IMG/VR virus record: IMGVR_UViG_3300012952_000051
Location: 1 to 35,776 of that record
Direction: 5' to 3' (one strand)
Length of the DNA: 35,776 bases
DNA from: a virus
Taxonomy: Duplodnaviria; Caudoviricetes
Shown: positions 11,621-35,630 of the stretch, one piece after another
Position numbering within the stretch: position 1 is the first letter of the stretch
Layout: each line of letters starts with the position of its first letter
Program-made: the position numbers and the translations under genes
The notes under the pieces: generated by a model
The model's database searches: none
What the model was told of the DNA's origin: nothing
Seen by the model: only the letters and a program-made list of their open reading frames with translations

Positions 11621-12226
11621 ATGAAGAAGCGTTTACTTAACGAATCAGCTGTTCGCAAAATGATGAAGTTGGCGAATATCGAAGCACTCACAGAAAATTT
11701 TCTTGATGAGACAAATGAGTTGGAAGAAACTCAAGAAGTTAACGAAGAAGAAGTTAACGAAGAGGAAGTTACCGAGGACGTAGCAGAAGAAGGCATGGGC
11801 GCCGTCTATGATAGAGACGACGAGCCTATGGACGATGATGCTCCTATGGGTGACCTGCCATTAGACGACGAGCCTATGGGTGACGAGCCTATGGGCGACG
11901 ACGCCGAGGCAGACGCTGGCCCAACAGTATCAATTGACGTTGAGAAGTTGGTTTCTGATATTGTTGCTGCCCTCAACGCTCAGGGCGCAGACGTATCAGT
12001 CGACGACGGTGCTCCTGCGGACGACGCGCCTCTAGATGACGCTCCCATGGATGACGCTCCCATGGATGACGCTCCTCTAGGCGACGATCCTATGGAAGAA
12101 GAGTTTGTCGCAGAAGAAACTGTCAGCGAAGATGAAACTCTAGAAGAAGAGGCCGTAGAGGAGGATCTTGTCAACGAGATCACTCGTCGCGTAGCTCAAA
12201 GAATTCTTCAAAACGCTTCAAACTAA
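11621..12226 (+). CDS. Highly acidic, low-complexity protein (scaffold/internal virion-like)
   Basis: SD GAGGAG; very high D/E content; repeated P(M/L)(D/G)D(A/E) pentapeptides. Confidence 0.75.
   Translation: MKKRLLNESAVRKMMKLANIEALTENFLDETNELEETQEVNEEEVNEEEVTEDVAEEGMGAVYDRDDEPMDDDAPMGDLPLDDEPMGDEPMGDDAEADAGPTVSIDVEKLVSDIVAALNAQGADVSVDDGAPADDAPLDDAPMDDAPMDDAPLGDDPMEEEFVAEETVSEDETLEEEAVEEDLVNEITRRVAQRILQNASN
11811..12095 (+). repeat. Imperfect 15-bp coding repeats in two blocks (GACGAGCCTATGGGT and GATGACGCTCCCATG)
   Basis: Visible tandem repeats encoding DEPMG and DDAPM. Confidence 0.8.
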
Positions 12227-23908: not shown

Positions 23909-24115
23909 ATGAGCCAGGGACTAGAAGAAGAAGACCTAAGATTTATTGTTGAAGCCGCTAAAGAAAAAGTTAAACTTGATAGAGAGCGTGCTTACTCTAT
24001 GATAGAGGATAGTGAAAGCCCACAAGATATTACCAATCTATTTAATGAAACTTCTAGGCTAGAACGCGCTCTAGACAACATAGAGAGAACCTTAGACAGA
24101 ACTTATTTTGAATGA
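23909..24115 (+). CDS. Hypothetical helical protein
   Basis: 68 aa with SD GAGGA. Confidence 0.55.
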   Translation: MSQGLEEEDLRFIVEAAKEKVKLDRERAYSMIEDSESPQDITNLFNETSRLERALDNIERTLDRTYFE

Positions 24116-24405
24116 TAGGCAACTTAGTTCACTACAATTGCGGTGGAAGCAAATCAATAGCGATCGTGACAGATTTTTTTCGTTATGAGGGTGAGAACAC
24201 ACGAACTTATCGCAACGGCGATATCCTGGTCTCGATAGAGTGGGTCAAAAAATCTGGCGCCATGCCACAGTCCATATCTCCAAATTATTTCCGATACAGT
24301 GACATGAGCATGAACAATGGCCGCGATACTAAATTTTGGCCTGCGGATTGGCATACAAAAAGATGGTATAACTTGAGATATTTTAAAGTTATTTCAAGCG
24401 CTTAG
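24112..24405 (+). CDS. MKVGDLV-family small protein (MIGNLV)
   Basis: Family N-terminus and FKVISSA C-terminus. Confidence 0.6.
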   Translation: MIGNLVHYNCGGSKSIAIVTDFFRYEGENTRTYRNGDILVSIEWVKKSGAMPQSISPNYFRYSDMSMNNGRDTKFWPADWHTKRWYNLRYFKVISSA

Positions 24406-24416
24406 AAATAAAATGT

Positions 24417-24443
24417 TTAATTTATGTTTTTCGTGCTTATAGT
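24417..24443 (+). promoter_or_regulatory. Repeated promoter-like motif, copy 1 (TTAA-N12-GTGCTTATAGT)
   Basis: One of 13 copies; this one has a 12-nt spacer. Confidence 0.65.
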
Positions 24444-24459
24444 TATAATATAAGGAGGC

Positions 24460-24693
24460 ATGAATATGTTTGGCGAAACACAATTTTTAACTGATAGCTT
24501 CAAGACACTCTATCTTGAAGATTATTTCAAACTGAAAGAAGAGGCAGAGCTTCTTAGAATAGAAGCAGAAGAAAATCGGCTAGCCGGTGATGATATAGCA
24601 TATATGGAAAAACTAAAACAGTATGATGTATACAATCTTACAGCAGATACTATGTTGAGCTTGGCTATTAAGACCCCCGTTGCGGAGGCGTGA
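24460..24693 (+). CDS. Hypothetical protein
   Basis: SD AAGGAGG. Confidence 0.6.
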   Translation: MNMFGETQFLTDSFKTLYLEDYFKLKEEAELLRIEAEENRLAGDDIAYMEKLKQYDVYNLTADTMLSLAIKTPVAEA

Positions 24694-25046
24694 TGAACTA
24701 TTCAGAAGAAGAAATAGAGATGGCATTTAATTATTTCGCCTCAGAAGCACAGAGAATTGTGTCACAATACATGGACACACACTTTCCAACGTTGCCCAAA
24801 GAGCATATTGAAGTAGATGATAACGGGCACGTATATTGGAAGCTTTTTAAAGTCTCTGAGCCGGATCACTGTGGGGGCATTTCTAGACAGATCTACGCTT
24901 TTGTCAGAAAGAGAGACGGCGCTATTTTTAAAGCCGCATCCTACCGCGCGCCATATACCAAGGGTAAGAGCGCCATTAGGGGCTACGTAACCGATGAATG
25001 GGCGTCTAGCCTCATCACAGCACACGGGGTGATATATGCGAGGTGA
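24690..25046 (+). CDS. Conserved phage hypothetical protein (FVRKRDGAIFKAASYRAP)
   Basis: G-x-I-x-K-A-A-S-x-x-A-P motif recalled from phage early proteins; SD GGAGG. Confidence 0.65.
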   Translation: MMNYSEEEIEMAFNYFASEAQRIVSQYMDTHFPTLPKEHIEVDDNGHVYWKLFKVSEPDHCGGISRQIYAFVRKRDGAIFKAASYRAPYTKGKSAIRGYVTDEWASSLITAHGVIYAR

Positions 25047-25243
25047 GAGTTGGCTCCCTAGTTTCGTATGTAGGACATTGGATCCCAGGGATATTTCCCG
25101 ATGATCGAACTAGAGAACCATCTTACGGCATCATAATAGAAATTGATCATTGGTCGCAAGGCACAAACGTTTGTGTCTATTGGACAGAAGCCGAAGAGAC
25201 GTACTGGCACGAAGAAACAGAATTGTTGTTGTTAAATGAATAG
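25043..25243 (+). CDS. MKVGDLV-family small protein
   Basis: MRVGSLV...GIII...VYW...ELLLLNE. Confidence 0.7.
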   Translation: MRVGSLVSYVGHWIPGIFPDDRTREPSYGIIIEIDHWSQGTNVCVYWTEAEETYWHEETELLLLNE

Positions 25244-25478
25244 AAAAATACCAAGAAATTTAAAAGTAGGCGATCTTGTTATATGGGAAGATGATTCGTT
25301 AGGAATACTTGCCAAACGGTTTGACATGTACGCCAATTCCTCTAGGCCAACTTGGCCAACTTGGTGTTGGAGAATCGAGTTTCCTAATGGTGCCCCTGCA
25401 AATTATAATGAGCGCTATGGCGAGGGCGAGATAAATTTAAAGAACAGGAATAAGATAAAAGAGATTATTTCTTGTTAA
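25236..25478 (+). CDS. MKVGDLV-family small protein
   Basis: NLKVGDLVIW. Confidence 0.7.
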   Translation: MNRKIPRNLKVGDLVIWEDDSLGILAKRFDMYANSSRPTWPTWCWRIEFPNGAPANYNERYGEGEINLKNRNKIKEIISC

Positions 25479-25502
25479 CTTTACGGCACTGGTGCTTATA
25501 GT
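25475..25502 (+). promoter_or_regulatory. Repeated promoter-like motif, copy 2
   Basis: TTAA-N13-GTGCTTATAGT; its TAA is the upstream stop codon. Confidence 0.7.
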
Positions 25503-25523
25503 TTATTCATCAGGAGATATTAA

Positions 25524-25676
25524 ATGAAAATTGGCGATTATGTTGTCTGTCAAGGCAAGGAAGGCAAAATTATAAGATTTCAACCAAAGACAAGAGATCT
25601 TATTGTAAAAGATGGCGAAGGAAATATACACACGTTCTCACAGTTTGCTGCGGAGTTGAAGAATGAAACCCGGTGA
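25524..25676 (+). CDS. MKVGDLV-family small protein, 50 aa (not in the ORF track)
   Basis: MKIGDYVVCQGKEGKII...ELKNETR; SD AGGAG. Confidence 0.7.
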   Translation: MKIGDYVVCQGKEGKIIRFQPKTRDLIVKDGEGNIHTFSQFAAELKNETR

Positions 25677-25857
25677 TCTAGTGAGGGTTAACCCTTCTAT
25701 GCGCGACACACGTCGACGAGGCGATGCAGTAGGCGTGATTGTTGAATACCATCCCGAAGAAGCATATCTTCACGAGTCAGTCCTCGTGCGCTGGGGCGAC
25801 GGCAAACAAGAGGTAGAATTTCCGCATTGGCTAGAGGTTGTTAATGCAGCCGGGTGA
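25663..25857 (+). CDS. MKVGDLV-family small protein
   Basis: MKPGDLVRV...VRWGDG...WLEVVNAAG. Confidence 0.75.
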   Translation: MKPGDLVRVNPSMRDTRRRGDAVGVIVEYHPEEAYLHESVLVRWGDGKQEVEFPHWLEVVNAAG

Positions 25858-26017
25858 TTTGGTGAGACATAAGACCGTTACCTCTTACGGGTTTGGTTTG
25901 GTAACTCACGTTGCTCATGGCACAAAAGCTGTTAAAGTATTGTGGTCTGTAAACAAAAGCAAGACACCGACCGCCGAAATTAGTGATATGTTAGAGATTG
26001 TAAGCGAGATTAAATAA
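25844..26017 (+). CDS. MKVGDLV-family small protein, 57 aa (not in the ORF track)
   Basis: MQPGDLVRHK...GFGLV...VLW...MLEIVSEIK. Confidence 0.75.
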   Translation: MQPGDLVRHKTVTSYGFGLVTHVAHGTKAVKVLWSVNKSKTPTAEISDMLEIVSEIK

Positions 26018-26019
26018 TT

Positions 26020-26163
26020 ATGTGGGTTTTTTACCATAAGATACCTGTCGTTGCCGCCGATTTTCCGAGCGACTTTACGGTGTTTGTTATAGTTGGTTTC
26101 ATTACCGGCGTTGTTGTTCTGGCGCCATCTTTTTTGGAGCGCAAAAGAAATGAAACCCGGTGA
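26020..26163 (+). CDS. 47-aa single-TM protein (not in the ORF track)
   Basis: MWVFYHKIPVVAADFPSDFTVFVIVGFITGVVVLAPSFLERKRNETR; ends in the same 14-nt junction. Confidence 0.5.
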   Translation: MWVFYHKIPVVAADFPSDFTVFVIVGFITGVVVLAPSFLERKRNETR

Positions 26164-26332
26164 GCTGGTAACTTTATCTGCATATGGACAGAAGTTAAAA
26201 ATGTTCACAAGCCTAAGAAACAAAGTCGGCTTGATTATTTCTGTCATGAAAGATGGTTCCTGCCATGTTCGCTGGCAAGGGTTTAGCACTAATCAATATA
26301 TGGAAAGAAAAGACATAAAGAAAGCTAAATAA
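26150..26332 (+). CDS. MKVGDLV-family small protein
   Basis: MKPGELVTLSAYG...VGLII...VRW; start reassigned to ATG 26150. Confidence 0.7.
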   Translation: MKPGELVTLSAYGQKLKMFTSLRNKVGLIISVMKDGSCHVRWQGFSTNQYMERKDIKKAK

Positions 26333-26353
26333 AAGTAATATTATGCTTATAAT
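26326..26353 (+). promoter_or_regulatory. Repeated promoter-like motif, copy 3
   Basis: TAAA-N13-ATGCTTATAAT. Confidence 0.6.
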
Positions 26354-26382
26354 AAAGAAAAGGAGGTTGGGCATTATGTCCG

Positions 26383-26739
26383 GTGTATTACGAAGCTCGT
26401 GATAGAGCATTGAATAATGGTAGGGTTTATCACCTCGCAGCTATTTTGAAACGACGAAACAAAGTCGTTAAGATTGGCGAGAACACGTATAAGACCCATC
26501 CTAGATTCAAAAGAACATACCCAGATGGTACAACAGGCAGCCACATGCATGCAGAGATGAACGTCCTGCGCTTCGCGAAGCCTGGAGATACCATAGAGGT
26601 TATTAGATTTCTAAAGACTGGTGGTCATGCCATGGCCAAGCCTTGCAGATACTGTATGCAACACATTCGAGAGGCTGGTATTAAAGAGGTAAGATATACC
26701 AATCCAGATGGAGAGTGGGAGTGCATGAAGGTAACGTGA
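26383..26739 (+). CDS. Zinc-dependent cytidine/dCMP deaminase-superfamily protein
   Basis: HAE and KPCRYC zinc motifs; AGIKEVRYT. Confidence 0.85.
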   Translation: MYYEARDRALNNGRVYHLAAILKRRNKVVKIGENTYKTHPRFKRTYPDGTTGSHMHAEMNVLRFAKPGDTIEVIRFLKTGGHAMAKPCRYCMQHIREAGIKEVRYTNPDGEWECMKVT

Positions 26740-26951
26740 GGGTAGGCGATTTAATTCTGTATGAGAATATGGATTCTAAATTAATTTATGGAATTGTTGC
26801 GGAAGCAGCTAGTTGGAGAAAAGAATATAAAGGCCCAGCCGTCCGCGTGTGTTGGTTTGACGACGCATCAATGACATACGAGTCTGTAGAAGCTATACTC
26901 AGCGATGAGGATATCGATCGCTACATAGGAGTCGTAAGTGGAAATCGGTGA
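26736..26951 (+). CDS. MKVGDLV-family small protein
   Basis: GTG start, (M)RVGDLILY...YGIV...VCWFDD. Confidence 0.7.
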   Translation: MRVGDLILYENMDSKLIYGIVAEAASWRKEYKGPAVRVCWFDDASMTYESVEAILSDEDIDRYIGVVSGNR

Positions 26952-27165
26952 TCTAGTAAAATGCAATTGGCAACCCGGTTCATCACACATTGAAGATGAT
27001 TGCGCTGTGCCTATGAAGTTTATAATCAAAGGCGAGATAGGAATTGTTATTGGCAAGAGAGAGCAGCACTATATAGGCAGCAGCTATAACGTGGTTCTAT
27101 TTCCAAAGTTTGGTTATAAACATACGTTAAGCGACCACACTCTTGACTTATTGAGCCAAATTTAG
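26938..27165 (+). CDS. MKVGDLV-family small protein
   Basis: MEIGDLVKC...IGIVI. Confidence 0.7.
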   Translation: MEIGDLVKCNWQPGSSHIEDDCAVPMKFIIKGEIGIVIGKREQHYIGSSYNVVLFPKFGYKHTLSDHTLDLLSQI

Positions 27166-27171
27166 TATGAT
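27143..27171 (+). promoter_or_regulatory. Sigma70-type promoter TTGACT-17-TATGAT; probably gives a leaderless uvsE mRNA
   Basis: ATG 27178 lies 7 nt after the -10, with no SD. Confidence 0.65.
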
Positions 27172-27177
27172 GGTATT

Positions 27178-28122
27178 ATGAACAACAAAACAAACTTAGG
27201 CTATGCTTGCATCAACATGCAGCTTTCTAGCCTACCAAAATCACAACGCGTAACTACGAACCGCACTATGATCAAGCGCACATTCAAACAGCGCGGATTA
27301 CCTTACGCTTCCGAACTGGCCCTTGCCAACTGTCGTGACTTGCTGACAATCCTAAAGTGGAATGAGCAGAACAATATCCGCTTCTTTCGCATCTCGTCAG
27401 ATATATTTCCATGGGCATCAGAGTATAAATTGTCTGACCTGCCCGACTATGATGACATTTGTGATGCCTTGCAAGATGCTGGCGATTATATTGAAGAGCA
27501 TGGCCATCGCATCACATCGCATCCTGGCCCTTACAACAAGCTGACATCGCCTCGCGAGCAAGTTGTATTAAACACTATCCGCGATCTTGATATCCATGGC
27601 GAGCTATTCGACATGCTTGGTTTATCGCGCACACCATACAACAAACTCAACATTCACGTTGGCGCACACTACAATGACAAGCCTATGGCATTGGGCAATT
27701 TCTGCCGCAATTTTCATCGCCTGTCTGAAGCTGCCCGTGCTCGCCTGACTGTCGAGAACGACGACAAGGCTAGCCTCTACTCGACCAAAGAGTTGTATGA
27801 TAGTGTCTACAATGAGATTGGTATCCCTATCGTCCACGACGTACATCACCACAAGTTTTGCACTGGCGATATCGACGACGAAGAAGCTATGTTGCTAGCA
27901 GCCATGACATGGGGCGATGTCAAGCCAGTTATCCACTACTCACAGTCGCGCTCAATTGAACACGATGACCCCAAGATCAGAGCTAATGCTCATAGCGATT
28001 CTTATTGGGAGCCGGTAGATACTTATGGTCTAGACATTGACGTAATGTTGGAGTGCAAACACAAAGAGCTTGGCTTGTTCAAGATGAGAGAATTACTAAG
28101 CGCCCGTAGCTCAGCTGGATAG
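27178..28122 (+). CDS. uvsE: UV DNA damage endonuclease
   Basis: [55 protein letters not shown]. Confidence 0.94.
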
Positions 28123-28176
28123 AGCAACGGCCTTCTAAGCCGTAGGTCACAGGTTCAAATCCTGTCGGGCGTGCCA
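28100..28176 (+). tRNA. tRNA-Arg (UCU)
   Basis: Cloverleaf; anticodon loop CTTCTAA; GGTTCAAAT T-loop; encoded CCA. Confidence 0.93.
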
Positions 28177-28180
28177 ATAC

Positions 28181-28489
28181 TTAAAAAAGATAACCGAGGT
28201 AAAGATATATTTTGCAAAGCAAGTAGCAGTGCCAAGCAGCTAGAGCACCGTAGAAGTAAACAATCCAATTTAAGTATTTAGATTGGTGCCTTGCTAACAA
28301 GAATATTGCAACAGCAAAAAGAACAACCTTAATAAATATAAAGAACCATGGGCTTATCTCAATCGCGTAAGCCATCAGAGGATTTACCTCGATCCCACCG
28401 TTGCTCAAGATAAGCAAAGTGGATCCAGCATCAAACAAGTTCAACAACATGGCGGTCATAGCTAGTATCTTTGTTTTCTTGCTCATCAT
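28181..28489 (-). CDS. DUF5658-like small membrane protein
   Basis: LNLFDAGSTL...GGIEVNPLM plus TM helices; the only convincing minus-strand gene. Confidence 0.75.
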   Translation of the reverse strand: MMSKKTKILAMTAMLLNLFDAGSTLLILSNGGIEVNPLMAYAIEISPWFFIFIKVVLFAVAIFLLARHQSKYLNWIVYFYGALAAWHCYLLCKIYLYLGYLF

Positions 28490-28521
28490 AAATAAATATT
28501 AGGATAGTGGTATTTTTTGCA

Positions 28522-28549
28522 TTAACTTAACACATATCGTGCTTATAAT
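28522..28549 (+). promoter_or_regulatory. Repeated promoter-like motif, copy 4 (upstream of the tRNA cluster)
   Basis: TTAA-N13-GTGCTTATAAT. Confidence 0.7.
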
Positions 28550-28561
28550 ATAAACATACAT

Positions 28562-28647
28562 GGCCTTGTGGCGGAATTGGTAGACGCAGCAGACTCAAAA
28601 TCTGCCGTCCTTTGGGCGTGAGGGTTCGAGTCCCTCCGAGGCCACCA
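28562..28647 (+). tRNA. tRNA-Leu (CAA)
   Basis: Class II cloverleaf with long variable arm; GCAGA-CTCAAAA-TCTGC; encoded CCA. Confidence 0.93.
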
Positions 28648-28654
28648 CACATAC

Positions 28655-28731
28655 GGACCTTTAGCTCAGTTGGTTAGAGCCACCCGCTCATAACGGGTTA
28701 GTCCTCGGTTCGAGTCCGAGAGGGTCCACCA
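28655..28731 (+). tRNA. tRNA with CAU anticodon, probably Ile2 (lysidine-type) rather than Met
   Basis: CCCG-CTCATAA-CGGG; acceptor GGACCTT/AGGGTCC with A73 resembles bacterial tRNA-Ile2; lacks initiator features. Confidence 0.85.
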
Positions 28732-28736
28732 AATAA

Positions 28737-28812
28737 TGCACAGCGGCACTAATGGAGTGCCTCCCGTACCGCAACCCGGTGATAGCAGGTTCGACTCCTG
28801 TCTGTGCAGCCA
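28737..28812 (+). tRNA. Atypical tRNA-like gene with a degenerate anticodon arm
   Basis: Acceptor TGCACAG/CTGTGCA+G+CCA, D-stem GCAC/GTGC and T-arm GCAGG-TTCGACT-CCTGT are intact; the anticodon stem does not pair canonically. Confidence 0.7.
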
Positions 28813-28833
28813 AACATTTAATGGAGAAATAAA

Positions 28834-28980
28834 ATGGAACAGATCATTTATGATTCGCTTGTAAGAGCACAAGAACACTTTGATGATATCGAGACACCAG
28901 AGCAGTTGGCAAAATATATTGCCGATGAATTAAAAAGAGCCATCGCAGAACAATTGATGCAACAGCTTAACCATCTCTAA
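28834..28980 (+). CDS. 48-aa helical protein (not in the ORF track)
   Basis: MEQIIYDSLVRAQEHFDD...; SD GGAG. Confidence 0.6.
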   Translation: MEQIIYDSLVRAQEHFDDIETPEQLAKYIADELKRAIAEQLMQQLNHL

Positions 28981-28994
28981 TTCGTGCTTATACT
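28967..28994 (+). promoter_or_regulatory. Repeated promoter-like motif, copy 5
   Basis: TTAA-N13-GTGCTTATACT, directly abutting ATG 28995. Confidence 0.65.
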
Positions 28995-29198
28995 ATGAAA
29001 GTAGGCGATTTAGTTCGTTTGTCCGCTCATGGTGAGAGACTATCGTGGTATCAGGATTGTCGAGGCAAACTCGGCTTAATAATTCGTGAGTGTGATATGT
29101 GGACAGGCAAAGAATATAAGCACTGCTTTTGGGTTAATTTTATTAATGGCCCACAAACGATAAAAGCATATCGCTCGGATCTTAAACACGCAAAATGA
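28995..29198 (+). CDS. MKVGDLV-family small protein
   Basis: MKVGDLVRLSAHG...LGLII. Confidence 0.75.
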   Translation: MKVGDLVRLSAHGERLSWYQDCRGKLGLIIRECDMWTGKEYKHCFWVNFINGPQTIKAYRSDLKHAK

Positions 29199-29395
29199 TT
29201 AAAGTTGGAGATTTAGTTAGGCCCGCCCCCGGCTGTGAATATATAGCAGAGCTTGGAACTGGTAGAGGCACTTATCGAGTACGCTACGGCATAGTGTGTG
29301 GGTGGGTTGAAAGCTCCCATATGTGGGAAGTTATTTGGAACGACGGACGCGAAACTAGCTGGTGGAACGAGAGAGAACTTAGGATTTTAACATGA
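29195..29395 (+). CDS. MKVGDLV-family small protein
   Basis: MIKVGDLVRP...YGIV...VIWNDG...ELRIL. Confidence 0.75.
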   Translation: MIKVGDLVRPAPGCEYIAELGTGRGTYRVRYGIVCGWVESSHMWEVIWNDGRETSWWNERELRILT

Positions 29396-29577
29396 AAGTC
29401 GGAGATTTGGTAACATTAGCGCCCAAGGTGATGCTTCGTCGTGAGCAGAACTTCGCTGGGTTCATCATAGGTTTTGATGAAGATAACGATCCGGTTGTCC
29501 AGTGGTTCCTGAAGGGAAATGAGATTTTTGTAGAATCAGAGTATAGAAGCCAGATAAAGGTAATTAGCGAAGCCTAA
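29392..29577 (+). CDS. MKVGDLV-family small protein
   Basis: MKVGDLVTL...VQWF...IKVISEA. Confidence 0.75.
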   Translation: MKVGDLVTLAPKVMLRREQNFAGFIIGFDEDNDPVVQWFLKGNEIFVESEYRSQIKVISEA

Positions 29578-29583
29578 CATTAT

Positions 29584-29660
29584 ACGCCCATAGCTCAGTA
29601 GGTTAGAGCGCCATTCTTATAAAGTGGAAGTCACGGGTTCAAGTCCCGTTGGGCGTACCA
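29584..29660 (+). tRNA. tRNA-Ile (UAU)
   Basis: Acceptor ACGCCCA/TGGGCGT; CCATT-CTTATAA-AGTGG; A73 plus CCA. Confidence 0.9.
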
Positions 29661-29680
29661 AAAACAAGGAGAATAAAATT

Positions 29681-29803
29681 ATGAAGAAATTATTTAGCAG
29701 TCCGCTGACCAATTCGGGTGGCCTCACCCTGGTAGGGTTTTTTTGGGCTATAGTTACAGCGATCTCAGCGTTTCTGTTGCCAATCTTTCTTTTCGTTGAG
29801 TGA
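29681..29803 (+). CDS. 40-aa single-TM protein (not in the ORF track)
   Basis: MKKLFSSPLTNSGGLTLVGFFWAIVTAISAFLLPIFLFVE; SD AAGGAG. Confidence 0.6.
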   Translation: MKKLFSSPLTNSGGLTLVGFFWAIVTAISAFLLPIFLFVE

Positions 29804-29985
29804 TCTCTACGATGGTACCAGGCGATTTAGTGAAATTTAAGAAGCCAAACACTAGAGAAATTGGACAATATTATTTGGTGTTGGAGATCGATGGTCCCGG
29901 TTGGGTTAGGCTCGACGATGGAGAGAGGAATCTATTTCACCATATGAAAGATCTGACGATTGTCAGCACTGGTCATGAAAAATGA
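29800..29985 (+). CDS. MKVGDLV-family small protein
   Basis: MVPGDLVKF...DLTIVS. Confidence 0.7.
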   Translation: MISTMVPGDLVKFKKPNTREIGQYYLVLEIDGPGWVRLDDGERNLFHHMKDLTIVSTGHEK

Positions 29986-30209
29986 TTCCGATGGAATATC
30001 TTAGGACCGATGCAAAGAGTCCAACTGGCCTTAATCCAGGCGCTAAGTCTGGCGAGAGCACGAACAAGAATAATTTTATTAAGCATAAGTCCTCGAAATC
30101 AAAGAGGAAATTAGATATTGGCCCAGCAGTTGTTCTTCATATTGGAGAAAGTGCTAAACTTGAGCCGATGCGTGCTTATGATTTTCTTGGAAGACCCAAG
30201 GAGATGTGA
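29982..30209 (+). CDS. Hypothetical basic protein
   Basis: 75 aa; ATGA overlap. Confidence 0.45.
   Translation: MIPMEYLRTDAKSPTGLNPGAKSGESTNKNNFIKHKSSKSKRKLDIGPAVVLHIGESAKLEPMRAYDFLGRPKEM
30155..30182 (+). promoter_or_regulatory. Repeated promoter-like motif, copy 6
   Basis: TAAA-N13-GTGCTTATGAT. Confidence 0.6.
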
Positions 30210-30769
30210 TGAGATTCTGCAATTTTATATTCAAACCCAAACAGAAAGAGATCGCCGAGAAAGTATTAAAAGGTCTTTGTGAAGGATGGCTTGGTTGGAA
30301 CGACGCTGGTCTTTATTGGGGATTTGATAACCGTGAACTTCCAGAAGGATATATTAAATTCTACGGCGAGGCGGATCCTTACAGCGGAGCTTCTGAAATG
30401 TCGAACGCCACCGAGATTTGCCATAGTGATGAGCCCGTCCGCGCATCTGATCTCACAGAGCATATGATGATCGCTCTTGACGAAGAAGGCTTCTTCGATG
30501 ATCCAAAGATCCATGAATGGATGTCATATGAAGATGCACAAGAGGACGAGAGAGTTTCTGGATGGGACAGCAACAACCCCAAATACTATAGTTTTTTTGA
30601 AAGAGAGCTTGGCGAAGTTATTATGTGCTTAGCCGCTAGCTCCTCCCGTGTCATGTCTTTCTATGAGGATTCCGTTTGGGTAGCAGACAAAGATGAGGCC
30701 GGGAATACTCAAACAAAGTCCGTTCCTCTGGTCGAAAATATCTTGAACATGCCAATCGATCACTCTTAA
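30206..30769 (+). CDS. Hypothetical acidic protein
   Basis: 187 aa with SD AAGGAG. Confidence 0.65.
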   Translation: MMRFCNFIFKPKQKEIAEKVLKGLCEGWLGWNDAGLYWGFDNRELPEGYIKFYGEADPYSGASEMSNATEICHSDEPVRASDLTEHMMIALDEEGFFDDPKIHEWMSYEDAQEDERVSGWDSNNPKYYSFFERELGEVIMCLAASSSRVMSFYEDSVWVADKDEAGNTQTKSVPLVENILNMPIDHS

Positions 30770-30793
30770 TTTAGCACAATCTGTGCTTATAGT
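30766..30793 (+). promoter_or_regulatory. Repeated promoter-like motif, copy 7
   Basis: TTAA-N13-GTGCTTATAGT; ATG 7 nt downstream. Confidence 0.7.
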
Positions 30794-30799
30794 TTACTT

Positions 30800-31015
30800 A
30801 TGAAATCACCAGAACTCAAAGTAGGCGATCTCGTCCAGTGGACGCTGGATGGAGATCTTGGATTCGTAACCAAGGTTGATCTCGCGGAGCTGGACGCTAC
30901 TGATAAGCCACCAGCCGATCGCGAGCCTTATTTTATTCAGTGGATTTACGAGCCCGGATCCTCTGGCTGGCATGGCGCGCACGAAGATTCTTTGAAATTG
31001 CTTAATCCTGCTTAA
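30800..31015 (+). CDS. MKVGDLV-family small protein
   Basis: ELKVGDLVQW...LGFV...IQW...SLKLLN. Confidence 0.75.
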   Translation: MKSPELKVGDLVQWTLDGDLGFVTKVDLAELDATDKPPADREPYFIQWIYEPGSSGWHGAHEDSLKLLNPA

Positions 31016-31029
31016 ACTGTGCTTATAGT
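31002..31029 (+). promoter_or_regulatory. Repeated promoter-like motif, copy 8
   Basis: TTAA-N13-GTGCTTATAGT. Confidence 0.7.
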
Positions 31030-31054
31030 CTTACTATAGAAAGGAGAAACAAAA

Positions 31055-31783
31055 ATGTCCCGTTGTTCATATTGTTATACAGAAGGTCACAATCGCCGCA
31101 CCTGTCCACAACTGACGAAAAGGCTGGAGCAATCGGCTGCTTCCGGTAGTTCCTATTCCCAATCCATGCTCGACGCTCGCGGCAAAGGCAGTGGCAGAAA
31201 GAAAGACACTCGTCGCTGTTCTTTCTGTGGTACTTATGGCCATGATCGTCGGACTTGCGATAAGCTAAACACTTTCCTCAAGGAAATCACGAGACGAGAT
31301 GTCATCGCCCGTGATATCATTAGAGAGCGGATGATTGATAGCGGTTTTGGCCCCGGCGCTTTGGTAGCATTTAGTGTTAGTGATTGGGATTACGAAAACA
31401 ACAAAACCAAAATGACAGATTACACTGGAATCATATCGAAAATCAAATGGAACGATATTGGACGAACGACGTTCGATAGCCGTCACCAGCTAGCTTTGGT
31501 AAAGTTTTTTGTCCAACGCGAAGGCGCAACGGTTCCTGCCGAACGCTGGCTCAGCCTACCCTTTGATGTGTTCGCCAAAGATCTCAAAGAGGTACCTGAT
31601 CGTCCTAGTTGGTCTGATGTTCCGGTAACTGTTTCTAAGGTCGATGTAGCTATCCCAGACTCTTACGATGATCATCGAGCCATTTTGAAACACAACAAGA
31701 TTGCATACAGAGAGCAAGATTCATATACTTGGGAGTACCGAGAGGTTATGAACGAGCTAGAGAACCAAGAGCAACAAAAGTAA
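31055..31783 (+). CDS. Protein with two CCHC zinc knuckles and a probable beta-barrel domain
   Basis: CSYCYTEGHNRRTC and CSFCGTYGHDRRTC, then FGPGALV...TGII; SD AAGGAG. Confidence 0.8.
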   Translation: MSRCSYCYTEGHNRRTCPQLTKRLEQSAASGSSYSQSMLDARGKGSGRKKDTRRCSFCGTYGHDRRTCDKLNTFLKEITRRDVIARDIIRERMIDSGFGPGALVAFSVSDWDYENNKTKMTDYTGIISKIKWNDIGRTTFDSRHQLALVKFFVQREGATVPAERWLSLPFDVFAKDLKEVPDRPSWSDVPVTVSKVDVAIPDSYDDHRAILKHNKIAYREQDSYTWEYREVMNELENQEQQK

Positions 31784-31983
31784 TGAAAGTTGGCGACTTG
31801 GTAAAAGTAATACACCCTACCTTTGGTGTGCCCTTCGGGGCACTAGCTATAATTTCGAGGGTTATGCGCTCTAACTTCGATGAGTTTGATATATATGATC
31901 TAGTGGTAGTAGGAACGAAAGAGCAAACTAGAAGGCAAGGCCGCGATCTAGAACTAGTCGCATCAGCGAATATTTCTTCTTAA
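31783..31983 (+). CDS. MKVGDLV-family small protein
   Basis: MKVGDLVKV...DLELVAS; TAATG coupling. Confidence 0.75.
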   Translation: MKVGDLVKVIHPTFGVPFGALAIISRVMRSNFDEFDIYDLVVVGTKEQTRRQGRDLELVASANISS

Positions 31984-32007
31984 CATATGCCTACTCGTGC
32001 TTATGAT
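31980..32007 (+). promoter_or_regulatory. Repeated promoter-like motif, copy 9
   Basis: TTAA-N13-GTGCTTATGAT; ATG 7 nt downstream. Confidence 0.7.
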
Positions 32008-32013
32008 TAGTAT

Positions 32014-32220
32014 ATGATTAAGGGACCATTCAAAACAGGCGATTTAGTAAAGTTTCCCGATACCGGATTCCTCGCTACGATTGTAAATATTGAAACCGAG
32101 TACAACACCACCAACGCGACGTTGTGGGTATCTGGCGATTACACTGGTCCGAACCCAACTTTCATGAGCTTAAATATGCTGCGCCGTCGAGCGGTTGTTA
32201 TTTCTAAGGCTAACAAATGA
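32014..32220 (+). CDS. MKVGDLV-family small protein
   Basis: FKTGDLVKF. Confidence 0.7.
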   Translation: MIKGPFKTGDLVKFPDTGFLATIVNIETEYNTTNATLWVSGDYTGPNPTFMSLNMLRRRAVVISKANK

Positions 32221-32411
32221 AAGTCGGAGATCTAGTAAGAATCAAGCGCCCCTGCCACATGACCGGAGACGCGGTAGGCTTGTGTGTATCACATGAATGG
32301 CACAAATATAGTATTAAATCTAAGATTTGGATCGTTGAGATCCTTAATCCCGCTCAAGGCACCCACCGCTATCTTGAGGAAGAACTGGAGTTAGTCAGTG
32401 AAAGCCGGTGA
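32217..32411 (+). CDS. MKVGDLV-family small protein
   Basis: MKVGDLVRI...ELELVSESR. Confidence 0.75.
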   Translation: MKVGDLVRIKRPCHMTGDAVGLCVSHEWHKYSIKSKIWIVEILNPAQGTHRYLEEELELVSESR

Positions 32412-32580
32412 TTTAGTAAAGCGTAAACTTAATGGCAAATATGAATACGCCATTATAGTTCAAATCTCGTCACATAAAGAAAACAATCATAGATCACCAT
32501 TCGCTCTTAAAGTGTGGACACGCTTAGGTCACGGATGTTGGGATGCTAGAAAATGTGAGTTGGCCAATGAAAGTCGGTAG
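32398..32580 (+). CDS. MKVGDLV-family small protein
   Basis: MKAGDLVK...CELANESR. Confidence 0.75.
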   Translation: MKAGDLVKRKLNGKYEYAIIVQISSHKENNHRSPFALKVWTRLGHGCWDARKCELANESR

Positions 32581-32818
32581 CCTAGTAAAATATGTCGGTT
32601 CAGCAGCTATGTATCGCGACCGAGTTGGTATTGTTGCGAAACTCTACGGGTTCATCGATGAACGAATCGACTCCGCGCTCGTTCACTTCGCTGGCCTTGA
32701 AGGCAAGGGCCGCGACGAAGTTGTGGATGCCTCCAATGTCCGCGCAAACCGAGGCAAGGGCGACGGACTTCATCCCATGGCGTTTGATGAGCTAAAGATC
32801 ATTGGTGAAAATCAATAA
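32567..32818 (+). CDS. MKVGDLV-family small protein
   Basis: MKVGSLVKY...VGIV...ELKIIGE; start ATG 32567. Confidence 0.75.
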   Translation: MKVGSLVKYVGSAAMYRDRVGIVAKLYGFIDERIDSALVHFAGLEGKGRDEVVDASNVRANRGKGDGLHPMAFDELKIIGENQ

Positions 32819-32825
32819 TAAAGCA

Positions 32826-32853
32826 TTAATTCTGACGGATCCGTGCTTATAGT
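32826..32853 (+). promoter_or_regulatory. Repeated promoter-like motif, copy 10
   Basis: TTAA-N13-GTGCTTATAGT; ATG 7 nt downstream. Confidence 0.7.
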
Positions 32854-32859
32854 TATATC

Positions 32860-33057
32860 ATGTTCAAGATAGGAAACCTAGTAAGACTTACCCGCCGTCA
32901 AGGCTGGAGAGAAGAAACTGACCCTGGCATCGGACTTGTGCTAGCTATCCGTTCGCACGATTATTTGCTTGATGAAATCAAAGTCCGCTGGCGAGATGGA
33001 AAAATAGAGTGGACAAACTCAGGTTTGCTTAGGATAATCTCCAGAGGAGTTAGTTAA
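32860..33057 (+). CDS. MKVGDLV-family small protein
   Basis: MFKIGNLVRL...IGLV...VRWRDG...LRIIS. Confidence 0.75.
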   Translation: MFKIGNLVRLTRRQGWREETDPGIGLVLAIRSHDYLLDEIKVRWRDGKIEWTNSGLLRIISRGVS

Positions 33058-33278
33058 TGAAAGTTGGTGATTTGGTAAGAATTATGGACGGCGGGAGCGG
33101 CCTGGTCCACGGCGGCGAGATTCCTCCTGATGCCATTGGCATCGTGGTTGCGGAGCCTTCCACAGCGTGCTTCCAGAAGGGCGGCGCGCTACCGTCGATG
33201 TGGGTTCAGTGGCCCGGACGCGGAGATTGGGACTCGATGGAGATCGAGGACTTGGAGGTTATCAGTGAAAGTCGGTGA
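33057..33278 (+). CDS. MKVGDLV-family small protein
   Basis: MKVGDLVRI...VQW...DLEVISESR. Confidence 0.75.
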   Translation: MKVGDLVRIMDGGSGLVHGGEIPPDAIGIVVAEPSTACFQKGGALPSMWVQWPGRGDWDSMEIEDLEVISESR

Positions 33279-33444
33279 TTTAGTTGTGCAGCTAGGCTGG
33301 GAAGCAGACGGTGTAGGTATCGTAACCAGAGTAGCCGCCGAGTCTGCCCTCATTGAACCGCCCGTGCTGGTTACAGTGCAGTGGCCAAACGGCGAGGACG
33401 ATATGTATCGGAGCGAGTTGAAGGTTATCAGTGAAAGTCGGTGA
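33265..33444 (+). CDS. MKVGDLV-family small protein
   Basis: GTG start after GGAGG; (M)KVGDLVVQ...VQWPNG...ELKVISESR. Confidence 0.75.
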   Translation: MKVGDLVVQLGWEADGVGIVTRVAAESALIEPPVLVTVQWPNGEDDMYRSELKVISESR

Positions 33445-33613
33445 TTTAGTAAAACATTCAGACATCCCCTCGCTAGGTCTTGGCCTCGTGACGGAAGATT
33501 TTGGTGTACACGTATGTGTACAGTGGCTATACGAAGCTGGCGACGACCGCAAGGATCCCGGTCCAACGCTGGAAACAATCAGTATGCTGGAGATTGTAAA
33601 TGAAAGTAGGTGA
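33431..33613 (+). CDS. MKVGDLV-family small protein
   Basis: MKVGDLVKH...VQW...MLEIVNESR. Confidence 0.75.
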   Translation: MKVGDLVKHSDIPSLGLGLVTEDFGVHVCVQWLYEAGDDRKDPGPTLETISMLEIVNESR

Positions 33614-33830
33614 TTTGGTTAAACTTCTGAATGATCCAGAAGTTCACAGAAATAACGGAGAGATTCCCCCTGATGCTATTGGTATCGTGGTCGAAGAGGA
33701 ATTGGCCGACCACGCCAGAGGTTCTCACGGCCCGCTGTGGTCGGTGTGGGTTAATTGGTTTGGTCGATGGGATTGGGATTCAATGTTCGTCGAGGATCTG
33801 AAGATCATCAGTGAAGCGCGAGGTTCATGA
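33600..33830 (+). CDS. MKVGDLV-family small protein, close paralogue of 33057
   Basis: Shares GEIPPDAIGIV and DWDSM..EDL with 33057. Confidence 0.75.
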   Translation: MKVGDLVKLLNDPEVHRNNGEIPPDAIGIVVEEELADHARGSHGPLWSVWVNWFGRWDWDSMFVEDLKIISEARGS

Positions 33831-33934
33831 TGGAGCACCTCTTTAACTGTCACGGCGAGTGGGCGCTGTTTGGGTCCGTCGCAGGCTCCGCGTTTTATAT
33901 TAAACACTGGATCAAAGCCAAGTGGAATAAATGA
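33827..33934 (+). CDS. 35-aa small protein (not in the ORF track)
   Basis: MMEHLFNCHGEWALFGSVAGSAFYIKHWIKAKWNK; ATGA overlaps at both ends. Confidence 0.5.
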   Translation: MMEHLFNCHGEWALFGSVAGSAFYIKHWIKAKWNK

Positions 33935-34125
33935 AAGTCGGTGATTTAGTAAAGCCTGGAGATGAACACGGGCTAAAAAACCGACCCTACAGAAAGTCTG
34001 GTGTTGTCATTAACCTACTGCCCGCAAAGCCAGGATGGAATGAGGCTTGTGTGGTTTTTTGGAACGATGGAGATTATGAGTTGGAAGTCCCGGCATGGTT
34101 GGAGATTATAAGTGCAGCCCGGTGA
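33931..34125 (+). CDS. MKVGDLV-family small protein
   Basis: MKVGDLVKP...VFWNDG...WLEIISAAR. Confidence 0.75.
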   Translation: MKVGDLVKPGDEHGLKNRPYRKSGVVINLLPAKPGWNEACVVFWNDGDYELEVPAWLEIISAAR

Positions 34126-34279
34126 TTTGGTAAGATTTAAGCACGATGGCCAGCTAATGTTGATCACTGCTATCCAGCGCCCCGGCTGCTTCCATGGTGT
34201 ATTTGTGTCTGGCAGACGCCACGGCCAAGGTGTAACATCGTATGAGAGTTTGATGGAGAAAATAAATGAAAGTCGGTGA
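34112..34279 (+). CDS. MKVGDLV-family small protein, 55 aa (not in the ORF track)
   Basis: GTG start; (M)QPGDLVRFK...MEKINESR. Confidence 0.7.
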   Translation: MQPGDLVRFKHDGQLMLITAIQRPGCFHGVFVSGRRHGQGVTSYESLMEKINESR

Positions 34280-34436
34280 TCTAGTAAAAGCGCCCCATTG
34301 GGGAGTCGATCAGGTAGCTGTTGTTATTAGTACCAAGCGTCTGGAACATACCGGAATTGTTAAAGTTTTTGGTTCCTTCGGTTGGGAGCTTGATCAAGAG
34401 TCACGACATCTTGAGATTATTTCCGAGGCCACTTAA
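34266..34436 (+). CDS. MKVGDLV-family small protein, 56 aa (not in the ORF track)
   Basis: MKVGDLVKAPHW...HLEIISEAT. Confidence 0.75.
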   Translation: MKVGDLVKAPHWGVDQVAVVISTKRLEHTGIVKVFGSFGWELDQESRHLEIISEAT

Positions 34437-34460
34437 CAAATGTGTTCCCATGCTTACTAT
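34433..34460 (+). promoter_or_regulatory. Repeated promoter-like motif, copy 11
   Basis: TTAA-N13-ATGCTTACTAT. Confidence 0.65.
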
Positions 34461-34482
34461 CTTTATGTAAGTACGGAGGCCC

Positions 34483-34731
34483 ATGATGGCGTTTAACAAT
34501 ATTCACACTGTGAAGGTCGGTGATCTTGTACGACGAGATCGCGGCTTCGGAAATGGAGAGCTGTTCATGGTGGTTGATGTCCAGGGCGAGCCCTGCCCGC
34601 TCAGATCTCACGAGATGACCCTGAAGCTATGGGAAGTTACAGAGCCTCCAGGCCACCACCATCATGCTCCGGCTAGCTTTTATATGATTGTCGGAGGAAA
34701 ATATGAATCAGATCTCTACGGGTCCAACTAG
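34483..34731 (+). CDS. MKVGDLV-family small protein
   Basis: VKVGDLVRR; SD GGAGG. Confidence 0.7.
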   Translation: MMAFNNIHTVKVGDLVRRDRGFGNGELFMVVDVQGEPCPLRSHEMTLKLWEVTEPPGHHHHAPASFYMIVGGKYESDLYGSN

Positions 34732-34734
34732 CAT

Positions 34735-35079
34735 ATGAAACACAAGCAAGCCATGTGCGGGTATTGTGCCAAGCGAGGGCACACCAGACGATCGTGCGCG
34801 TTGAGAAAGCGGCACGAAAAGATGTTTGACACCGCAATCTTTCCGCAAATCTTCAAGCCTGGAGATCTGGTGGTCACTGCGTTAGCTCCACCCCGGTACA
34901 AAGACGAGCACCCACGAGGATGGGGGACAGAACCAGAAGGCACGCTAGCGATGGTTACTAGCGGACCCATTGAACATTATCATTCGTGGGGTGGACTCTA
35001 CGATATTGTTTACGTTTCAGGAGATAGCACCGGTACGACAAGTCAGATTTGTGCTGATTTTGTTAGACCGACAACTTAA
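34735..35079 (+). CDS. CCHC zinc knuckle fused to an MKVGDLV-family domain
   Basis: CGYCAKRGHTRRSC followed by FKPGDLVV. Confidence 0.75.
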   Translation: MKHKQAMCGYCAKRGHTRRSCALRKRHEKMFDTAIFPQIFKPGDLVVTALAPPRYKDEHPRGWGTEPEGTLAMVTSGPIEHYHSWGGLYDIVYVSGDSTGTTSQICADFVRPTT

Positions 35080-35103
35080 TTCACATACTTTAGTGCTTAT
35101 ATT
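35076..35103 (+). promoter_or_regulatory. Repeated promoter-like motif, copy 12 (upstream of tRNA-Lys)
   Basis: TTAA-N13-GTGCTTATATT. Confidence 0.7.
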
Positions 35104-35119
35104 TTAAGTATCAGATTAT

Positions 35120-35195
35120 GCCTCTTTAGCTCAGTTGGTAGAGCACGCGGCTTTTAACCGCTAGGTCGTAGGTTCGATCCCTACAGGGGGCACCA
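35120..35195 (+). tRNA. tRNA-Lys (UUU)
   Basis: Cloverleaf; GCGG-CTTTTAA-CCGC; encoded CCA. Confidence 0.92.
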
Positions 35196-35210
35196 AACAC
35201 AGGAGATCCA

Positions 35211-35606
35211 GTGGGATACCGTTCAGAAGTAGTTTTGGCTGTAACAAAGCAAGCCGCGCCATACTTCATGGCGATGCTAGCCAAAAGTCCAGATACCAAA
35301 CGATTGTGTGAAACCGCTGACGAGTTTACCCCCGACTTCGATGAAGAAGGCGGCTGGTTAGTTCGCTGGAGCAATATCAAGTGGTACGAAGGATATCCAG
35401 AAGTTGATGTAATCAATGATTTTGTTGAGGCGATGAGTTCAGATGATCTAGCTCAATATGGAGAACTGGAGTCTAGTTCAATCGAATGGTCTGAACACTT
35501 CATTTTCGTGAGAGTTGGTGAGGAATGTGATGATATCCGTCAAGAAGGTTACGGACCATGGCCAATCTTCCCACAAACTTCAATTCATATTGGCAAAGAT
35601 ACTTAA
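35211..35606 (+). CDS. Conserved phage hypothetical protein (MGYRSEV...WSNIKWYEGYPEV...RVGEE)
   Basis: 131 aa; GTG start after AGGAG. Confidence 0.7.
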   Translation: MGYRSEVVLAVTKQAAPYFMAMLAKSPDTKRLCETADEFTPDFDEEGGWLVRWSNIKWYEGYPEVDVINDFVEAMSSDDLAQYGELESSSIEWSEHFIFVRVGEECDDIRQEGYGPWPIFPQTSIHIGKDT

Positions 35607-35630
35607 TTAGCACCTTAGCGTGCTTACTAT
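35603..35630 (+). promoter_or_regulatory. Repeated promoter-like motif, copy 13
   Basis: TTAA-N13-GTGCTTACTAT. Confidence 0.7.

Follow-up and report, generated by a model that had tools for sequence, protein, structure and literature searches.

Among the systems described so far, the nearest to the one reported here are the promoter-early stem-loop (PeSL) cassettes of the T4-type phages RB49 and phi1. In the account of Arbiol et al. 2010 (PMC2839356), these are intergenic elements of about 100 bp, comprising a promoter and a stem-loop, that isolate each unrelated ORFan transcriptionally; mini-circles are shown there, and the authors explicitly compare PeSLs with integrons. In the linker-sequence model of Botstein and Campbell, as related in PMC2839356 and PMC2327257, modules are exchanged via short conserved flanks that ensure placement and regulation. 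Cluster K mycobacteriophages carry start-associated sequences (SAS, and the related ESAS) of 13 bp, located 3-7 bp upstream of the start codons of genes of different families, for which PMC3203893, in its accessible parts, proposes a role in translation and none in recombination. Here we describe a 32-nt repeat, the junction, that chains small genes of one family in a 35.8-kb virus record (IMGVR_UViG_3300012952_000051; 35,776 nucleotides, this whole stretch being called the window), a fragment of a larger uncultured marine phage genome. We favour a process where whole genes are gained, lost, reordered and exchanged between phages at the start-codon half of this repeat (the core) by homology-guided crossover, using general recombination or replication machinery, and give this reading a probability of roughly 0.75. 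Classical linkers flank the functional modules of lambdoid phages, whereas here single paralogous mini-genes are chained.

The window contains 28 family-like open reading frames (ORFs) or domains, spread over two clusters (Table 1), with deaminase, UvdE and tRNA genes interrupting the stretch between and within them. Members are about 60 residues long and share the motifs MKVGDLV, an interior G-[IL]-V, V-x-W and a final LE[VIL][VI]. A preliminary description of this DNA had listed eleven gene pairs overlapping by exactly 14 nt, and all of these start/stop pairs are present, with upstream frames open over 49-121 codons. At such chained junctions the conserved ends of the fold, MKVGDLV and LE[VIL][VI], overlap by 14 nt. 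The conserved ends of the paralogous cargo proteins themselves make the repeat; the arrangement is indeed repeat-gene-repeat, but the protein-coding spacers are paralogues of one SH3-like family rather than unrelated ORFs. Across 498 non-redundant chained genes the edges of conservation lie at -12 and +20 from the start codon, giving a clade-wide unit of 32 nt, wholly coding in two frames, in which the last codons and the stop of the upstream gene are combined with a Shine-Dalgarno (SD)-like site and the start codon of the gene that follows.

Some details of the first description require adjustment. The proposed consensus RTGAAAGTCGGTGA is matched exactly in only three of the eleven junctions, the remainder being variants. 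Gly-Asp codons of the downstream gene supply the upstream stop in nine, while 26150 has Gly-Glu and 32567 has Gly-Ser, which gives TAG. An SD within the LE codons (GGAG or GAGG) is likewise found in nine, and is weak at 32567 and 33431. The identity of 33257-33284 with 33423-33450 holds and reaches one base further left, to 29 nt. With its -12..-1 block containing GGAG, the junction resembles SAS as portrayed in PMC3203893 in being a short, asymmetric, start-associated repeat of one orientation with an SD-like part, at non-structural genes; it differs in sequence, in that the downstream genes belong to one family, and in that the block codes in two frames.

A degenerate pattern of the junction, 30 nt long, matched about 140 stretches of IMG/VR. 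The set of loci comprised 225 sequences, of which 172 were of at least 1.5 kb; removal of 16 contained ones left material forming 139 groups. At least three chained junctions occur in 67 of the 139, and a single locus may have up to 22. With a heuristic gene caller that gives family starts a bonus, the 14-nt overlap was found at 677 of 1120 family starts versus 165 of 3870 other starts in the fetched loci, which were partly chosen by the junction pattern, and at 74 of 182 family starts in 80 loci chosen by UvdE homology alone. The chained overlaps at family starts are not due to chance. In each of five complete relatives, the copies of the core lie on one strand and in one region.

Gene order is unstable across relatives, and breakpoints are non-random with respect to the junction, homology between relatives ending at family starts. 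Of 204 ends of matches with at least 85% identity within arrays, 161 fall, in both genomes, between -20 and +30 relative to a family start, as do 20% of array positions overall. Merging near-identical populations, which leaves 28 population pairs, gives 99 of 126, and counting each cassette and side once gives 67 of 87 (null 20%). Peaks lie at +19 for right ends and at -12 and +1 for left ends. In pairs of at least 97% identity, breaks were seen at 18 of 133 chained versus 2 of 75 unchained family starts, at 2 of 77 other starts in arrays and at 1 of 631 outside, although these rows are not independent. Breaks also track the match between cores (16/112 at no more than one mismatch vs 4/96 in these pairs; 39/81 vs 7/56 at unchained starts).

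Twelve of 14 clean indels occur in arrays, and eight of the twelve have their best crossover within -1..+20. The crossover interval varies by event (+6..+17, +1..+6, -1..+3), and in two cases the join shows 0 mismatches to both parents. Fine inspection covered five hand-picked examples, two of them less clear. L094 and L104, which are 99.5-99.99% identical, are distinguished by a 176-bp indel whose crossover falls in 20 identical nt; L062 and L061 show two indels, of 148 bp in an 11-nt identity and of 145 bp in a 16-nt identity. Exchange does not depend on triple coding, since one of the two partner starts is unchained in four of the eight best-resolved events; breaks are nonetheless more frequent at chained junctions. 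The working crossover site is thus the half from +1 to +20 that holds the start codon and encodes MKVGDLV; unchained starts have this half too, and SD and C-terminus travel with the upstream gene. The earlier proposal that cassettes are gained, lost and shuffled between junctions without an integrase-type att site is therefore borne out for gains, losses, reordering and the missing integrase, but has to be narrowed, as the resolved crossovers lie in the start-codon half. Two clean indels outside arrays (L027/L022 and L076/L070) resolve poorly, in AT-rich sequence 12-36 nt upstream of a gene.

Shuffled gene orders were found among L127, L136 and L103, between L004 and L111, and between the window and both L050 and L147, the shuffled copies being 78-96% identical. 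More than one upstream neighbour was recorded for 100 of 156 family clusters versus 146 of 358 clusters of other short genes (clusters in more than one locus group). In comparison with the collinear relative L109, DNA homology is lost after +19 of 25663 and found again from -4 of 34266; the window genes 32217 to 34279 are mostly without counterparts there, and the best L109 match of gene 33931 sits at the position of 25663. Cassette 33265 has 88% DNA identity to a cassette in the distant phage L050, whose core proteins are 24-69% identical. This homology begins at the start codon and reaches into the next gene as far as about +23, and in L050 the cassette has different neighbours on both sides, with flanks of 37% and 23%. 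Genes 33057-33278 and 33600-33830 are paralogues with 49-55% amino acid identity; no other pair in the window is recognisable as a recent duplication.

Movement is also visible among strains of the window's own phage, in a comparison from which run X2, almost letter-identical to the window and perhaps its source, was left out. X17 and X19 contigs (same species, two studies) skip 33812-33931, with a short side of 52-53 letters and four shared letters, and the join yields a full chained junction; X6 and X12 keep the insert. In X17 and X19, 33049/33050 is joined to 33266 and depth is zero at 33094-33181; cassette 33057 (33057-33264) is apparently absent from these strains. An X12 contig may join 33050 to 33600, alongside the window's form in X12. 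The back-joint of the 166-bp circle expected for a single cassette was not among the joints listed from contig mapping, and back-joints in X6 (200 and 203 bp) were not accepted as a circular cassette because of unknown letters between them and the wrong size. The 34-aa gene in the skipped segment (MEHL...CHGEW) belongs to a family that is common in relatives among non-family genes, here inserted at a junction. Same-length diverged replacements that do not start at junctions were seen at 25062-25492 and 29687-29806 (X6) and at 32249-32268 (X19), one of them inside a family gene.

As all genomes are metagenomic, one has to ask whether assemblers have skipped or reordered cassettes at the repeat. 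Many short-sided contig joints are plainly cross-phage noise, and joints with sides under about 35 letters were dropped for this reason; yet the form that skips 33812-33931 is shared by X17 and X19 from two studies. The 20-nt identity at the L094/L104 crossover is close to common k values, but other crossovers fall in identities of 11, 16 and 4 nt, which are shorter than usual assembly k-mers. The 78-96% identity of shuffled copies means that they have diverged since, and L096 and L123, from separate samples, assemble the same array identically. We regard an artefact of this kind as extremely unlikely.

The core is conserved at the DNA level. The expectation that synonymous sites in the junction would be constrained proved correct, core sites being conserved beyond what the protein needs, while gene bodies share little DNA. 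Among MKVGD genes, 233 of 323 chained members carry the exact 13-nt core, where 11% would be expected with GGT forced, as do 67 of 160 unchained members, against an expected 3%. At Val3, GTC and GTA are synonymous in both frames (Val in one, Arg in the other), but GTC is used in 307 of the 358 cases with either codon, versus 53% in gene interiors. Beyond the overlap, 322 of 441 genes use TTR for Leu6, versus a background of 35-44%; Val7 is no more biased than the 5' ends of other genes, and as a control the interior beta-2 glycine codon is GGT at 31%, equal to background. The Glu at -7 is GAG in 317 of 329 genes versus 44% in interiors, and this speaks for the SD interpretation. Of the unchained family genes, 94 of 456 end in remnant xSE/xNE tails, versus 54 of 2,285 other genes. 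Selection on initiation and homogenisation by recombination cannot be separated fully as sources of this conservation.

A different explanation is that DNA rejoins anywhere and only joins that rebuild a junction survive, the repeat being a by-product of protein ends and translation signals. There is no intergenic space, so that viable exchanges must fall in the overlap; even so, non-family starts inside the same arrays break in just 2 of 77 cases, and break frequency follows the core match. The 120-bp indel shares merely 4 nt, but in two other cases the joins are in exact register with both parents. Start-region codon bias exists (AAA is at 67% at the 5' end of other genes), and non-family genes also end in NESR when they precede a core, whereas synonymous conservation extends to unchained genes and to sites outside the overlap. 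We therefore consider a pure selection filter unlikely, although illegitimate recombination is, according to PMC2327257 as far as accessible, the prevalent model of phage mosaicism.

The sharp edges at -12 and +20, the near-fixed bases between them and the restriction to a single orientation and a single genome region might instead mark the core as the site of a dedicated, unrecognised site-specific recombinase of phage or host, in the manner of integrons. Most proteins scanned in the complete relative G004 have no family, which leaves room for such an enzyme; however, domains of tyrosine integrase, resolvase, ERF, RecT and Rad52 were found in none of the five complete relatives. For PF00589 (tyrosine integrase) 14 of 14 controls were positive, the window genome itself being a fragment. 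A gene of the RecA family (RecA/UvsX) is present in all five. Six junctions folded as RNA (+) and as DNA (-) gave no hairpin (z -0.74 to +1.54), and an attC-like or hairpin site was rejected on these scores. Crossover intervals differ among events instead of marking one bond. A dedicated recombinase thus appears very unlikely.

For homology-guided crossover at the core, we envisage the following course. A RecA/UvsX-type system, or a template switch during replication, would pair two cores, either within one genome or between co-infecting phages, because the core is the sole homology between neighbours. The product would keep the register, the moved unit being gene body, C-terminus, SD and next core, and no gene would be broken; repeated exchange would also homogenise the core. 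The 14-nt overlap is expected to couple translation, each gene being translated off the end of the previous one, and the coupled sub-arrays would be transcribed from promoter-like repeats at their heads. Candidates for the latter are copies of the motif GTGCTTAY (mostly TTAA, about 13 nt, then GTGCTTATA), with 12 plus-strand copies in the window, all beyond 23,900 and several of them heading sub-arrays; the motif is a putative promoter. The TTAA-N~13-GTGCTTATA repeat has 13 copies in L109, and L124 (4267-11563) has sigma-70-like repeats of about 70 nt before genes of the corresponding region; taken with the poorly resolved indels outside arrays, this means that a true PeSL-like layer may coexist with the junction system.

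Several observations weigh against this reading or restrict it. Identities of 11-20 nt are short for RecA-type pairing. Recombination patches of under 50 bp, reported for T4 in PMC2839356, can be set beside them. The recA/uvsX region lies outside the window, the recombination enzyme being inferred, and the 120-bp event with 4 shared nt fits microhomology or illegitimate joining plus selection equally well. BLAST ends run through any shared repeat and selection would remove crossovers in gene bodies, so that clustering alone is no proof of homology guidance; moreover, 24 of the 204 match ends are near no family start, some within gene bodies. Four of the 12 array indels were not resolved to the core (8-60 mismatches), and several of the resolved events come from one lineage (L004, L103, L127, L136). 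Start-region codon bias or selection on initiation could explain part of the synonymous signal, and GAG also encodes the Glu of the LE motif in 62 of the 79 family genes that lack a chained downstream neighbour, a pattern compatible with remnant junctions. Finally, contigs from other strains of the window's phage bridge most junctions without change; exchange is therefore a slow, evolutionary process and not a rapid switch.

The cargo is predicted to be an SH3-like small beta-barrel. The one member folded among the 28 (73 aa, 33057-33278) gave a model of five strands with a predicted local distance difference test (pLDDT) score of 85. In a VIA structure search, the model matched PsaE (Z 8.0, root mean square deviation 2.3, 61 aligned), Spt5 KOW (Z 7.7; 1.9, 56) and MIB1 (Z 7.3; 2.9, 65), and a profile search of solved structures returned the same set (MIB1 at E 7.5e-7). 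A five-strand barrel of 50-70 residues, as predicted here, is likewise found in PsaE, Spt5/NusG KOW, Mib-Herc2/REP, NdhS, YorP and Tudor domains. The top structure matches are tied, so no sub-family can be assigned, and a shared fold does not show function.

None of the 28 ORFs exceeded any Pfam cut-off (KOW, PsaE, MIB_HERC2 and Tudor included), the sub-threshold matches being to SH3-B/C_UBE2O and MIB_HERC2 only. PHROGs and PADLOC gave no name for the family (two weak PHROG matches are of unknown function there), ESM Atlas matches were to unnamed viral clusters only, and Foldseek against viral models gave none at E<=0.001. The open literature searched contains no description of family or junction, nor the string MKVGDLV; subscription papers and supplements, which lay outside this scope, could hold a mention. 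The accessible parts of PMC7824862, PMC9123017 and PMC5332604 likewise describe neither.

The family is diverse, with 792 clusters at 60% identity among 1,316 genes of the fetched loci, and its profile matches 1,378 cluster representatives at 50% identity, some outside the clade. A dN/dS of 0.17 over 65 orthologue pairs (0.13 for other short genes) indicates purifying selection, while a net charge ranging from -8 to +6 argues against one common nucleic-acid ligand. We put at about even the odds that these proteins are binding modules made early and directed at the host, with variable loops on a fixed scaffold, and that they serve host takeover or counter-defence, turnover of the set being the benefit. 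Protein P0010 (127 aa) consists of two family barrels fused in frame, with the C-terminus LEVISESR, so that cassettes can also fuse. Zinc-knuckle-like N-terminal motifs (sub-threshold in Pfam) occur in genes 31055-31783 and 34735-35079, the motif in gene 34735 being fused to a family-like barrel domain.

By inspection of translations, the left part of the window encodes ribonucleotide reductase, DNA polymerase III alpha, dUTPase, a GuaB-like enzyme, ClpP and GroEL, and the right part UvdE, a deaminase and five tRNAs. The complete relatives with the junction are T4-like myoviruses of 185-204 kb. One of them, G004 (204 kb), shares with the window the gene order polymerase, dUTPase, dehydrogenase, ClpP-like protease, GroEL, and also encodes myovirus sheath, tube, portal, head protease, UvsX, SbcCD and RuvC (112 of 153 long ORFs scanned). 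Window stretch 31700-34500 was found in 20 marine or aquatic DNA runs from 14 studies, among the runs listed, which included no RNA run. In 50,697 GenBank phage records the 73-aa family member had no match and the polymerase III alpha no relative above 60% identity, so no cultured relative was found there. Polymerase III alpha is present in 52% of the heterogeneous PGC_A cluster according to the accessible part of PMC9123017, and this cluster is a possible home of the phage.

UvdE (27178-28122) is missing at the syntenic position of the close relative L109, which retains the flanking genes. tRNA genes are interspersed among the mini-gene arrays; one at 29584-29660 is a tRNA-Ile with anticodon TAT, which is unusual in bacteria. 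An Rfam scan of the window returned only the five tRNAs and two sub-threshold overlaps, and by eye 28740-28812 is tRNA-like (T-arm-like motif, paired ends, CCA) although not called by ARAGORN or Rfam. At 11815-12102, 15-bp tandem units encode acidic D/P/M repeats within a 201-aa ORF. The junction pattern also matches contigs of five metagenome-assembled genomes of unrelated taxa (L236-L240), which are probably mis-binned phage DNA.

Table 1. Mini-gene clusters, junctions and related features of the window. Positions of chained junctions run from -12 to +20 of the downstream start codon.
Feature	Position	Strand	Details
First cluster	25043..27165	+	family genes 25043, 25236, 25524, 25663, 25844, 26150, 26736, 26938
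Non-family gene in first cluster	26020-26163	+	
Deaminase-fold gene in first cluster	26383-26739	+	
Second cluster, first part	28995..35079 (whole cluster)	+	family genes 28995, 29195, 29392, 29812, 30800, 31783, 32014, 32217, 32398
Second cluster, next part		+	family genes 32567, 32860, 33057, 33265, 33431, 33600, 33931, 34112, 34266
Second cluster, end		+	family genes 34483/34510, 34735 (internal barrel domain)
Second cluster, further content	28995..35079		other small genes and a tRNA
Chained junction	25651..25682	+	start 25663, stop ends 25676
Chained junction	25832..25863	+	start 25844, stop ends 25857
Chained junction	26138..26169	+	start 26150, stop ends 26163; upstream partner non-family gene
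Chained junction	26926..26957	+	start 26938, stop ends 26951
Chained junction	32386..32417	+	start 32398, stop ends 32411
Chained junction	32555..32586	+	start 32567, TAG stop ends 32580
Junction-like sequence	33046..33076	+	unchained start 33057 (1-nt overlap); upstream half out of frame with gene 32860
Cassette 33057	33057..33278	+	73 aa, the folded member
Chained junction	33253..33284	+	start 33265, stop ends 33278; 29 nt identical to following junction
Cassette 33265	33265..33444	+	flanked by the two junctions with 29 identical nt
Chained junction	33419..33450	+	start 33431, stop ends 33444
Chained junction	33588..33619	+	start 33600, stop ends 33613
Decayed junction, upstream half	33800..33816	+	gene 33600 C-terminus IISEARGS
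120-bp segment	33812..33931	+	non-family 34-aa gene 33830-33934 with own SD-like site
Perfect core	33931..33950	+	unchained start (4-nt overlap)
Chained junction	34100..34131	+	start 34112, stop ends 34125
Chained junction	34254..34285	+	start 34266, stop ends 34279
GTGCTTAY copies	23988..35627 (span)	+	23988, 24433, 25492, 28539, 28984, 30172, 30783, 31019, 31997, 32843, 35093, 35620

The likely outcome of exchange at the core is a swappable set of proteins, of putative function, in related phages and strains. The locus bears on the old question of whether phage mosaics arise at conserved linkers or by random joining followed by selection, and since this linker is short, countable and recodable without changing either protein, that question can be put to a direct test. 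The locus also draws attention to a very large protein family, still unnamed, in widespread marine phages, and a stop, SD, start and crossover site within 32 nt make a natural scar-free joint for gene assembly, putatively with translational coupling. A far-reaching interpretation, which we offer tentatively and hold to be rather doubtful as a whole, is that of an integrase-free cassette system whose cargo encodes its own recombination site. The barrel's first seven codons would be selected as DNA to serve as a universal plug, and an ocean-wide pool of over a thousand loop-variable binders would pass between distant phages one gene at a time, perhaps in the form of single-gene circles, as a putative recombining binder library directed at host defence or regulatory proteins.

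Known systems share parts of this arrangement. The attC site of integrons folds as a single-strand hairpin, and their promoterless cassettes are read from an upstream promoter. With integrons (cf. PMC1382264 and PMC11023631), the junction system has in common arrays of repeat-gene-repeat, mostly of single small genes that are gained, lost and reordered; it differs in the lack of a tyrosine integrase in the five complete relatives and of a hairpin site, and in a cargo of one protein family. The likeness to PeSLs, judged from PMC2839356 as far as it is accessible, is closer. Both are dispersed direct repeats in a hyperplastic region of T4-type genomes, both act as crossover sites for the gain, loss and replacement of small genes, both include the SD and the start codon, and in neither has a dedicated recombinase been found. 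However, the junction holds no sigma-70-like promoter, the promoter-like motif being a separate repeat, and the six junctions folded show neither stem-loop nor terminator. Mini-circles were seen for PeSLs, whereas the present results were read from contigs. PeSLs are intergenic and about 100 bp long, while the junction has 32 nt, contains a 14-nt gene overlap and is fully coding, with putative translational coupling and a cargo of one fold family that makes the linker by its own ends. The system works like the PeSL shuffling of T4-type phages and like the classical linker model, yet it is not a PeSL.

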